DNA of 64,000 bases from the NCBI GenBank assembly GCA_000004985.1, contig GG738850.1, one strand, 5' to 3'. Below, one piece after another: positions 2,826-53,801 of the stretch. The notes beneath the pieces are model-generated. The model saw nothing but the letters and a program-made list of their open reading frames with translations. It searched no databases and had not been told where the DNA came from. Origin of the DNA: Naegleria gruberi. Lineage: Eukaryota. The position numbers and the translations under genes were made by a program. Positions within the stretch are counted from its first letter, which is position 1. Each line of letters starts with the position of its first letter.

Positions 2826-4478
2826 ATGATGAAACAAGTAATTGGAAGGAAAGCAACATTGTTGGTGTTGATTTTGGCTTTATGCACAATATTTGTTATG
2901 GGAAAGGAATCGAATAATGATCCAATTATTGGACTTTCTATCGGAAATACACACTGGAGAGCTGTCATTATTAGAAATGGTAATGTTGAATGGATTAGAG
3001 ATGGAGAAGGGCAGATTGAACACAAATCTTTTGAGAATATTAACAAAATAATAGGAAAAAATTACAAATCCATTCAATTTAAAGATCCATACTTGTTGGA
3101 ATCGAATAAGATTTTTGAAAGAAATGGAAAGGTTTATTGTAAATTTGATGTAGATGGAGTTGTGAAGGAAATGACACCAGAAGATATTTATTCAAACATT
3201 CTGCTTGATGTAAAGCAAGCAACTTTAGAATATTTAAATGAGAATATTACAAGAATCTACATTTCAGTTCCTGTTTATTTTGGTCCTGATCAAAGAAATG
3301 TTATTCGAAATGCTGCTTCAGAGCAAGGTTTAAAAATTGAAAGATTTCTTCTAGATCCAGTCAACACGGCAACATTCAATACCAAGGAATACGAATCAAA
3401 TAATTCAGCTAACATTCTAGTTGTGGACATGGGAAGAAAATCATTGGATGCAACTGTACTGAGTAGAAATAATAGCGTGTTTGAAGTTTACCAAGCTGAA
3501 TCGAATGGCCAATTGGGATCTGAAAAGTTTCATATGAAATTGAGAGATTTATTTGTTTCGAAATTTAAGAAACAACATGAATCATTAAGAGATGTGAATT
3601 TATTGGAAAATCAACAGGTGAATGACTTGTTAATGAGTCATGCTGAGATAGCAATGATAGCCCTCTCGAATGATTGTAAATATCATATTGTAATACCATC
3701 TCTCTATGAAGGAAAGGATTTCACATACACTCTAACTCGTGATTACTTTGAAAAACATTGTAAAGACCTTCTTGATGAAATTTCCAAGTTGATTTACAGC
3801 ATTATTACAGAGACAGTTTTTTACTTTGAGACTGTTGATTCGGTCATTCTCTCAGGTGACTCAACCAATAACCCGTTAATAAGGAAGTCAATTACTAATC
3901 GTTTTCCATTTTCCAAAGTTGTACATGGGCAAAATCCAGAGGTTGGTGCTGCTATTCAAGCTTACATGAGAAATCATCCTGAATCAAGTGTTCCGACTTT
4001 ATTTCTTGCGCCATTTTCCATTGGAATTGAAAATTCAGATCATCAATTGGTGAAGATTATTCAAAGGGGTGACTTGTTACCAACTGTGAAACGAGTAATC
4101 TTTTCAAATTTGGATGATTTTAGTGAATCTGCTCATTTGAAGATTTTCATTGGTGAATCTGTGGTTAATATTGGACCAAGGAATGTTCATATCGGTGATT
4201 TGATTCTGAAAGGAATTGAATTGACTGAGAGCGGGAATGCACAAATTCAAATTTCCTTTCAAATTGATGGAGAGTATAATCTCACAGTTACAGCTCTCGA
4301 TTTGAAAACCAACGCCAAGAGTGAAACTGTGATTTCTCTTCACAGTTTTGCCAATAATCTTGAACTAATTGATGAATTATTAGAGGATGGAATTCAAGAA
4401 GTCACAGATAATGTTAAAACTGAAAAGCTTATTTCCAGTTTCATCGTGGATCCAATTAAAAATCATGACGAATTTTAA
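2826..4478 (+). CDS. Hsp70-family (actin-like ATPase) protein with N-terminal signal peptide; divergent, no canonical substrate-binding domain (STCH/HSPA13-like)
   Basis: A 550-aa single ORF. 'IIGLSIGNTHWRAVIIRNG' aligns to the Hsp70 phosphate-1 motif, 'ILVVDMGRKSLDATVLS' to the connect-1/DLGGGTFD motif, and 'VILSGDSTNNPLIRKSI...NPEVGAAIQA' to the adenosine motif. A hydrophobic N-terminus 'ATLLVLILALCTIFVMG' is present. Confidence 0.7.
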   Translation: MMKQVIGRKATLLVLILALCTIFVMGKESNNDPIIGLSIGNTHWRAVIIRNGNVEWIRDGEGQIEHKSFENINKIIGKNYKSIQFKDPYLLESNKIFERNGKVYCKFDVDGVVKEMTPEDIYSNILLDVKQATLEYLNENITRIYISVPVYFGPDQRNVIRNAASEQGLKIERFLLDPVNTATFNTKEYESNNSANILVVDMGRKSLDATVLSRNNSVFEVYQAESNGQLGSEKFHMKLRDLFVSKFKKQHESLRDVNLLENQQVNDLLMSHAEIAMIALSNDCKYHIVIPSLYEGKDFTYTLTRDYFEKHCKDLLDEISKLIYSIITETVFYFETVDSVILSGDSTNNPLIRKSITNRFPFSKVVHGQNPEVGAAIQAYMRNHPESSVPTLFLAPFSIGIENSDHQLVKIIQRGDLLPTVKRVIFSNLDDFSESAHLKIFIGESVVNIGPRNVHIGDLILKGIELTESGNAQIQISFQIDGEYNLTVTALDLKTNAKSETVISLHSFANNLELIDELLEDGIQEVTDNVKTEKLISSFIVDPIKNHDEF

Positions 4479-4508
4479 TAAGGTAATAAATACTATAAAT
4501 CAATTTAT

Positions 4509-4946
4509 TATTGTGGTTTTCGAGAATCCTCGGACCGAGAAAAATTGCAATTTATTGATATTGCAAGGAGCAAAATTCGAAAAACGCATTTTTTACCAAT
4601 AAATTGCGATGAACAAAATCGCAACAAACCTCAATTATTGGTGTATGTTTTCATTCAAGGTTTTCAATTTTTCAGCCTAGTTTCCAATAACTTTTGCATA
4701 ATTTTCTTCCCATTGTTGAAAGGTGAGTAAGGACTTGATGTACACAATGAATACCACCTCCTTTTAGCAAACTCGTAATATCATCTTTAATGTAAAAACA
4801 ACCAACATTGTGCATCGTGATTTATCAAAAATGCACAATCTCAATTTTATTGGCAAAAATGTGAAATGAAAAAAATTCACAATTTCGCGATTTTATCTAA
4901 TATCAAAAACGCAAACACGGTCCGAGGATTCTCGAAAACCACAATA
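4509..4946. mobile_element. MITE-like non-autonomous DNA transposon (Tc1/mariner/Stowaway-like)
   Basis: Perfect 27-29-bp terminal inverted repeats: ttgtggttttcgagaatcctcggaccg at 4511-4537 and its exact reverse complement cggtccgaggattctcgaaaaccacaa at 4918-4944. Each is flanked by TA (4509-4510 and 4945-4946), consistent with a TA target-site duplication. The roughly 440-bp AT-rich interior has sub-terminal inverted repeats and no ORF. Confidence 0.7.
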
Positions 4947-5192
4947 TTTTATAGAAATTTATCTGAAATATGGTACAATGTCTTTGCTCGCTTTGCTATA
5001 ATGTTAAATTGATCAAAGATCAAATAACAAGTAGTTGGATATTTCAACCATTCTTCGTTTTGAATGAGTATCAATTCCACACTTCTATGGTTACAATTTC
5101 TTGGATTCAGACTCAAAATCTAGGATTTGAATCCAACTAGCAATATTTGCATTCTTTCCACCAAACAACTTGGTTAATTCATCAACAACAAG

Positions 5193-5921
5193 TTATTTAC
5201 AACTAGTGTAAACTGGACAAATTGGTGGCAATCTAAACATGGTCGAGTCTACAATCGTGCTTGGAATGTAAACGTTCTGTGAAAGATTCACTTGTGGCAG
5301 AGTGAGTTCAATACTCAAAGGAAAACAATACTGCTCTGGTTGAGTTGGTTTTGTCGTCCATTGTGAATAGGTTTTGGTAAAGATATGAGTTGCTTCAAAT
5401 TCTCCATGCTTCTTTCCAAATGAATTCTTACTATCCAACGGATAGCAAACCAAATCCCAATCAATTTTCTCCTTCAAAATCCTACAAGAGCAATGTCCTC
5501 TCATTACATGATATTCATAATCATTGGAACCTAATCTAAAATAATAACGACTCGCATTGATTGGTTCACCATTCGGATTGATACTCACAGAATCGATACG
5601 TTTTCTCATGGTTTCTCTATCGATCCATGTCTGGCTATTGGTTGTTGAGATGTGTTGGTGATGGTCATGTGTGGAATTCTTTCGTGTGAGACTACTTGTC
5701 ATTATCATGGAATATCTTGGTGGTAAACAACATTTAGAGTCCCCAGAAGGTAAACTCTGCTTCCATGCCTGATGTATTGTCCTTCTCAGTGACTCATCTC
5801 TAATGAGTGAAAAATCTACGCATTCAACTTGATTCTCACCTCCACATATGAATATTGTTGTGAACAAGACAATTATCAGTATAATATTCCTCATCTTTAT
5901 ATCTTCAATATTGCTCCTCAT
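5193..5921 (-). CDS. secreted cysteine-containing protein of unknown function
   Basis: A 242-aa ORF. The second Met opens a signal peptide 'MRNIILIIVLFTTIFICG'. There are 9 Cys and a His-rich stretch. No domain recognised. Confidence 0.45.
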   Translation of the reverse strand: MRSNIEDIKMRNIILIIVLFTTIFICGGENQVECVDFSLIRDESLRRTIHQAWKQSLPSGDSKCCLPPRYSMIMTSSLTRKNSTHDHHQHISTTNSQTWIDRETMRKRIDSVSINPNGEPINASRYYFRLGSNDYEYHVMRGHCSCRILKEKIDWDLVCYPLDSKNSFGKKHGEFEATHIFTKTYSQWTTKPTQPEQYCFPLSIELTLPQVNLSQNVYIPSTIVDSTMFRLPPICPVYTSCK

Positions 5922-49114: not shown

Positions 49115-49203
49115 GGGTGGTTAGCTCAGCGGTAGAGCACCGGATTGCAAAGATATTTGCAGCAGACATCCGATGGTCACGTGTTCGATCCACGTACCAC
49201 CCT
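49115..49203 (+). tRNA. tRNA-Cys (anticodon GCA) with 17-nt intron
   Basis: Acceptor gggtggt/accaccc, D-arm gctc-agcggta-gagc, anticodon stem ccgga/tccga, loop ttGCAa|[agatatttgcagcagac]|a, T-arm acgtg-ttcgatc-cacgt, discriminator t. The exon sequence resembles yeast tRNA-Cys. The intron (49151-49167) sits at the canonical 37/38 position and can pair with the anticodon (ttgcaa/tttgcag). Confidence 0.7.
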
Positions 49204-52668: not shown

Positions 52669-52787
52669 GGCTACGGCCATATCACGATGAATGCACCTCA
52701 TCCCGTCCGATTTGAGAAGTTAAGCATCGTAGAGCCACATCAGTACTGAGGTTGGAGACAACTTGGGAACCTGTGGTGCTGTAGTCT
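52669..52787 (+). rRNA. 5S ribosomal RNA
   Basis: ggctacggccatatcacgatgaatgcacctcatcccgtccgatttgagaagttaagcatcgtagagccacatcagtactgaggttggagacaacttgggaacctgtggtgctgtagtc, 119 nt, followed by a TTTT Pol III terminator. It is identical to the minus-strand copy at 1668-1785 except for one substitution. Confidence 0.85.
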
Positions 52788-53718: not shown

Positions 53719-53801
53719 TGCCAGCGGTGGGGTTCGAACCCACGAACCCATTCGGGATAAGATCTTAAGTCTTACGCATTTGACCACTCTGCTACGCGGG
53801 C
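53719..53801 (-). tRNA. tRNA-Leu (anticodon TAA), class II with long variable arm
   Basis: The reverse complement gcccgcgtagcagagtggtcaaatgcgtaagacttaagatcttatcccgaatgggttcgtgggttcgaaccccaccgctggca has anticodon stem taaga/tctta with loop cTTAAga, a variable arm ccc-gaat-ggg, T-arm gtggg-ttcgaac-cccac, and one C.U mismatch in the acceptor stem (4:69). Confidence 0.7.

Follow-up and report, generated by a model that had tools for sequence, protein, structure and literature searches.

A probable non-autonomous DNA transposon with perfect terminal inverted repeats between two convergent genes of Naegleria gruberi

A 64-kb stretch of Naegleria gruberi nuclear DNA (positions 1-64000, hereafter the window) contains, between two convergent genes, a segment (4511-4944) that is probably a single copy of a MITE, a non-autonomous DNA transposon of the cut-and-paste type, which has inserted into their spacer. 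Judging from its termini and flanks, IS630-Tc1-mariner is the most likely superfamily of this element. A MITE had already been proposed at this location in a first-pass annotation, and all of the features that can be seen in a single copy, namely the terminal inverted repeats (TIRs), the flanking TA dinucleotides, the size, the lack of coding capacity, the sub-terminal repeats and the long spacer in which it lies, fit this reading. The element would be an ordinary kind of object, MITE-like and at most representing a new family, and it may already be present in Repbase.

Structure and coding capacity of the element

The left TIR (4511-4537; + strand) reads TTGTGGTTTTCGAGAATCCTCGGACCG, incorporates three CpGs and a small CGAG-AATC-CTCG hairpin, and recurs as its exact reverse complement in the right TIR (4918-4944; - strand; 27 nt, 100% identity), in agreement with the perfect pair described in the first-pass annotation. 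As TA is its own reverse complement and lies outside both 27-nt arms, the perfect palindromic match reaches 29 nt once the outer TA dinucleotides (4509-4510 and 4945-4946) are counted. In 30 first-order Markov simulations, by comparison, perfect inverted repeats with loops of up to 1 kb were at most 12 to 19 nt long. No match to the 27-mer TIR was found in the shuffled window, and no second long inverted repeat of high identity occurs elsewhere in the 64 kb. The TIR observation is thereby confirmed as real and lies far beyond chance.

The TIRs enclose an interior of 380 bp (4538-4917; 30% GC; nine CpGs; CpG observed/expected ratio (O/E): 1.07), shorter than the roughly 440 bp first ascribed to it, while the complete element measures 434 bp, or 438 bp when both TAs are included, and falls within the size range of MITEs (below about 800 bp). 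The interior had also been described as AT-rich, yet the adjoining spacer sequence is just as AT-rich (28.6% GC), and the GC content of the window is only slightly higher (about 34%; range 31-39%).

Inward of the TIRs, a left sub-terminal arm (4545-4671; + strand) is complementary to a right sub-terminal arm (4769-4914; - strand). These sub-terminal inverted repeats, which had likewise been noted from the sequence, are real but weak, with a local alignment score of 52 compared to 32.6 +/- 5.7 in shuffled sequences, of which 2/300 scored as well. Beyond the 29 perfect bases the complementarity of the arms is faint, requires many gaps and reaches to about 130 nt. An identity of 100% over the terminal 29 nt followed by a sharp drop is the pattern expected if only the transposase-binding ends are constrained, unlike that of a recent plain inverted duplication. 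Several short motifs are repeated within the element. The left arm contains repeated ATTGCR (ATTGCA/ATTGCG) and GCAATTTATTG/CCAATAAATTGC motifs, while the hexamer CACAAT, or its inverse ATTGTG, which also constitutes the terminal hexamer, is found six times in the element (13.7/kb, compared to 1.2/kb in the window, an approximately eleven-fold enrichment). In the right arm CACAAT starts at positions 4834 and 4878 and the inverse ATTGTG at 4807, with additional CACAAT copies starting at 4743, just outside this arm, and at 4940, the terminal copy within the right TIR.

All six reading frames of the element are interrupted by stop codons, the longest open frame, which enters from the left end, comprising 72 codons. 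Furthermore, its concatenated six-frame translation retrieved nothing at E <= 10 from 5.8 billion protein clusters, indicating that there is neither a transposase remnant in the element nor a predicted protein, those of the N. gruberi gene models included, that overlaps similar sequence. The non-coding character proposed for the interior is thus borne out. Two open reading frames (ORFs) had been placed inside the element as spurious; this holds for 4545-4730, while 4387-4602 begins out of frame within the coding sequence of the upstream Hsp70-like gene and runs into the element. No tRNA was identified in the element with ARAGORN, and an E-value search against Rfam yielded no family and two sub-threshold chance matches only, giving no support for a tRNA-derived SINE or a known RNA gene. 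The likeness of one part of the TIR, GGTTTTCGAGAATCC, to a Pol III B box was dismissed as coincidence.

Target site and superfamily assignment

When the element is taken to span 4511-4944, TA is present on both flanks (4509-4510 and 4945-4946), as had been reported, and may represent a target-site duplication; alternatively, these two nucleotides may be the outermost part of a 29-nt TIR. The probability of TA occurring on both flanks by chance is about 0.4-0.8% on the basis of the dinucleotide frequencies of the window or the spacer, and nearer a few percent when TA is counted within 20 nt on either side, where the sequence contains little other than A and T. The claim of a TA target-site duplication made in the first-pass annotation holds in so far as TA is found on both sides, but the duplication is not unique. 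Shifting each boundary outward by one nucleotide (4510-4945) gives ATT/ATT with a perfect TIR of 28 nt, and shifting each by three (4508-4947) gives TTTA/TTTA with a TIR of 30 nt that has one mismatch at its tip. No perfect duplication of 5-12 bp exists at any of the seven boundary settings considered. TA is the only one of these readings that fits a strict known target rule. As the ATT and TTTA duplications also fit, the assignment to Tc1/mariner is regarded as likely, at a level below demonstrated.

As the main alternative, the element could be a non-autonomous TIR transposon outside Tc1/mariner, in which the TA, or its inner base, forms part of the TIR and the duplication is ATT or TTTA. 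We consider this unlikely, although several observations speak for it. Both of these duplications are perfect in the sequence, and the internal repeat is CACAAT rather than CACAA, the pentamer being followed by T in 6/6 cases in the element compared to 35% in the background, a hint that the end of the element may include the T of the flanking "TA". The element also carries many short sub-terminal repeats, and abundant repeats of this type are commoner in hAT, Mutator, PIF and P-type elements than in most mariner-type MITEs. Furthermore, the Naegleria elements documented in the papers found, Kolobok, which generates TTAA duplications (PMC9587614), and MuDRF, which generates 9-bp duplications (PMC3164196), are both non-Tc1/mariner. 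Three- and four-nucleotide matches are, however, cheap where the flanks consist almost entirely of A and T, and the individual superfamilies fit poorly. A PIF/Harbinger (Tourist) origin requires a 3-bp TWA duplication, whereas the flanks read TTA and TAT and the sole 3-bp reading is ATT. A piggyBac or Kolobok origin requires TTAA, which is found at neither boundary and which TTTA does not match, and hAT, Mutator and Merlin elements are not supported in that no duplication of 8, 9 or 10 bp is present. The termini do not fit those of a CACTA-like element. A Transib-like reading of the CACAAT ends was also rejected, because CACAAT points out of the element at its 3' end instead of into it at its 5' end, and because the flanking 5-mers differ (TATTA and TATTT).

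Genomic context

The element is located 3' of an Hsp70-like gene, as the first-pass annotation had placed it, and more precisely in the spacer that separates this gene from a convergent neighbour. The upstream gene (2826-4478; + strand; 550 codons; stop codon 4476-4478) encodes a protein with a Pfam HSP70 domain (E = 2e-60) that shares 100% identity over 96% of its length with an NCBI "predicted protein [Naegleria gruberi]". The left TIR starts 32 nt past its stop codon, and between the two lies an AATAAA hexamer (4485-4490; + strand), a possible poly(A) signal of the Hsp70-like gene, with the TIR 20 nt further on. On the other side, the stop codon of a convergent ORF (5193-5921; - strand; 242 aa; without a Pfam family) is found 246 nt from the right TA. 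From stop to stop this spacer measures 714 bp, compared to 246, 176 and 186 bp for three other convergent pairs in the window, and 278 bp would remain after removal of the element and one TA. The surplus over the other convergent spacers thus roughly equals the element in size, as an insertion would predict. With the element removed, the flanks fused through a single TA read AATCAATTTATTATTTTATAGAAATT.

Several additional observations concern the Hsp70-like gene itself. Its ORF extends 24 codons (2826-2897) upstream of the NCBI model (526 aa; starting at M25), and these encode a hydrophobic, signal-peptide-like stretch, KATLLVLILALCTIFV, while the C-terminus of the protein reads HDEF (4464-4478). 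The combination of a signal-peptide-like N-terminal stretch and an HDEF end suggests that the product is an ER-resident, BiP-like divergent Hsp70 and that the annotated gene begins too far downstream. Other than itself, the closest database matches of the protein are 27% identical. Located 150 nt ahead of the insertion, a 31-nt segment of the Hsp70-like coding sequence (4333-4363) shows 84% complementarity to 4841-4871 in the right sub-terminal arm of the element. The two have the 12-mer TTTTGCCAATAA in common (blastn within the window: E = 0.002), a similarity that is probably due to chance in AT-rich sequence.

The placement of the element also bears on a second alternative, that of an immobile single-copy element of the host (29-bp stem, 380-nt loop) that would serve a role at the DNA or RNA level. 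At the DNA level it could act as a cruciform or as a barrier between the convergent genes, and at the RNA level a read-through hairpin could affect 3'-end formation or feed RNA interference. The element is placed exactly at the meeting point of the convergent transcription units, 20 nt past the AATAAA hexamer, and no second copy is known from the window, the protein clusters or the viral, metagenome and prokaryote collections, both of which are in keeping with a host structure. The whole element also folds with a z-score of -9.2 relative to shuffled sequences. The interior alone, however, has a z-score of -2.3, showing that the folding excess is almost entirely derived from the terminal stem. 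Moreover, the other convergent spacers of the window contain nothing similar, no Rfam family is matched, and the foreign CpG signature of the element, together with the excess spacer length, favours inserted DNA over host DNA that has evolved in place. A host structure of this kind is as such improbable.

Base composition and age

The element contains 15 CpGs (O/E: 1.32), ranking first by both count and ratio among 3135 sliding windows of 438 bp. By contrast, the O/E of the host region is 0.42 (0.43 +/- 0.21 across 438-bp windows), and about five CpGs would be expected in the element at the host ratio. The AG/CT value is likewise divergent, at 0.53 in the element compared to 0.99. A dinucleotide signature so unlike that of the host suggests that the element is foreign or young DNA. 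Across the window, CpG is strongly depleted (O/E: 0.42) and TpA is likewise underrepresented (0.62), whereas GpC stays close to normal (0.85). Besides the element, the least CpG-depleted windows are those harboring tRNA genes or a set of tandem paralogues at 43.3-45.2 kb. Methylation at cytosine (5mC) in N. gruberi is sparse (0.28%) and not specific to CpG, although repeats and young transposable elements are enriched in it (PMC12344493).

With identical ends and without the CpG deficit typical of its host, the element looks young. The first-pass annotation had concluded that perfect TIRs imply a recent insertion, but the identity of the ends provides a loose bound only (below about 5.5% divergence per site), and youth is better indicated by the CpG excess. 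Ends that are intact and a CpG ratio three times that of the host (1.32 compared to 0.42) further raise the tentative, and on balance doubtful, possibility that the element represents a still mobilisable DNA-transposon family that reached N. gruberi very recently, possibly through horizontal transfer. If this were the case, and if an active transposase partner exists, it would constitute a natural transposon system in Naegleria.

The composition also weighs against a third alternative, a local inverted duplication or foldback generated by replication template switching or repair without a transposase. This is highly improbable, since, even though some complementarity of the arms extends to about 130 nt and a single copy is seen in the 64-kb window, a uniformly high arm identity would be expected instead of 29 perfect bases followed by weak, gap-rich similarity, neither arm copies nearby host sequence, and the CpG content differs from that of the host. 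A transposon accounts better than either the host hairpin or the plain inverted duplication for the base composition, for the surplus length of the spacer and for the abrupt fall in identity along the arms.

Search for copies and relatives

Neither a second copy of the TIR (with up to three mismatches) nor a copy of the interior was identified in the 64-kb window, and no transposase, integrase or reverse transcriptase gene is encoded in it. A 21-nt core of the TIR had no matches in a viral collection (2.9 million contigs), in metagenomes or in a prokaryote collection comprising one genome for each of 185,579 species, the metagenome and prokaryote sets being without the N. gruberi assembly. Two shorter cores of 17 nt gave five and zero matches, respectively, in the viral contigs, and an 18-nt core (TA plus 16 nt) gave 23 matches in metagenomes and 14 in prokaryotes. 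All of these short-core matches are single sites, in numbers that chance predicts, and as none extends past the search pattern or has an inverted partner, they are attributed to chance.

The TIR strings do not occur in the literature searched or in the supplements of PMC12344493, and the literature search retrieved no description of a Naegleria MITE or of a Tc1/mariner element in Naegleria. In the N. gruberi genome, the share of classified transposable elements is approximately 0.28% (bioRxiv 10.64898/2026.06.24.734286), and this poverty lowers the prior for reading the element as a transposon. Both DNA transposons and retrotransposons are present, and most of the repeats are unclassified (PMC12344493).

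The window is otherwise rich in long ORFs coding for ordinary eukaryotic proteins, including LMBR1, 6PGD, G6PD, actin, DOCK and a PI3K-like protein. The genes for 6-phosphogluconate dehydrogenase (26485-27735; - strand) and glucose-6-phosphate dehydrogenase (29205-29981; + strand), both of which catalyze steps of the pentose-phosphate pathway, adjoin each other in divergent orientation. Three tandem paralogous ORFs without a Pfam family (40875-44974; - strand; 349, 400 and 399 aa) have common blocks of 63-90% nucleotide identity and a CpG content that is unusually high for the region. Two dispersed full-length 5S rRNA genes (1667-1785, - strand; 52669-52787, + strand; Rfam: 105-106 bits) are each accompanied by a tRNA gene at a distance of about 1 kb or less, namely tRNA-Asp (2326-2396) and tRNA-Leu (53719-53801). 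A further tRNA match of 89 nt (49115-49203; + strand; Rfam: 54.7 bits) was missed by ARAGORN, and this tRNA presumably carries an intron.

Comparison with known elements

The closest structural parallels are with MITEs derived from Tc1/mariner elements, both those of the plant Stowaway type and those derived from mariner in animals and protists. The N. gruberi element has the same small, non-coding form with 27-bp TIRs and TA flanks, and is also alike in its strong hairpin potential and its insertion close to genes, but its host is a heterolobosean amoeba and TA is not the sole reading of its flanks. The term "Stowaway-like", applied to it in the first-pass annotation, is appropriate in a structural sense but does not extend to the termini. 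The TIR consensus of plant Stowaway elements is CTCCCTCCGTT, to which the TIR of the element (TTGTGGTTTTCG...) is unrelated, and with ends that read TTGTGGTTTTCGAG..., a Stowaway element in the strict sense was rejected.

The "submariner" MITEs of Pandoravirus salinus and Acanthamoeba are young elements with TA flanks and near-identical ends. The N. gruberi element resembles them in its TA flanks, its identical ends and its amoeba host, but its TIR is without a match in the 2.9 million viral contigs and there is no evidence of a viral link. Similarly, the insertion sequences of the bacterial IS630 family and their MITEs have short TIRs and a TA duplication, the latter being putative in the element, but no related TIR was found among the 185,579 prokaryotic species. 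Foldback-type elements are alike in that their halves are partly complementary past the TIRs. The arms of the N. gruberi element, however, are mostly diverged and gappy, surround a large non-palindromic centre and lack tandem sub-repeats. The Kolobok and MuDRF elements of Naegleria occur in the same host genus and are likewise cut-and-paste transposons with TIRs, but neither the TTAA nor the 9-bp type of duplication is present at the element.

Proposed transposition and significance

The sequence itself shows how the element is built, where it lies, that it encodes nothing and that its composition is foreign, while its superfamily, its TA duplication and its mobility are inferred. Its putative transposition can be outlined by analogy with the established mechanism of the IS630/Tc1/mariner superfamily. 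A DDE/D transposase, encoded elsewhere, would recognise the 27-bp ends, which are identical, and might in addition bind the CACAAT sub-terminal repeats. It would pair both ends and excise the element, which would then be inserted where a TA dinucleotide has been cut in a staggered fashion, and subsequent gap repair would duplicate this TA.

Taken alone, the element carries little weight, since MITEs are commonly found near genes and the present one lies past the putative poly(A) signal of its neighbour. An intact element with a composition unlike that of its host nevertheless points to recent, and possibly ongoing, DNA transposition in a heterolobosean. Its value lies in the fact that few classifiable transposable elements have been reported in N. 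gruberi, and we suggest that the family to which it belongs could aid in assigning those repeats of this organism that attract 5mC and are as yet unclassified.
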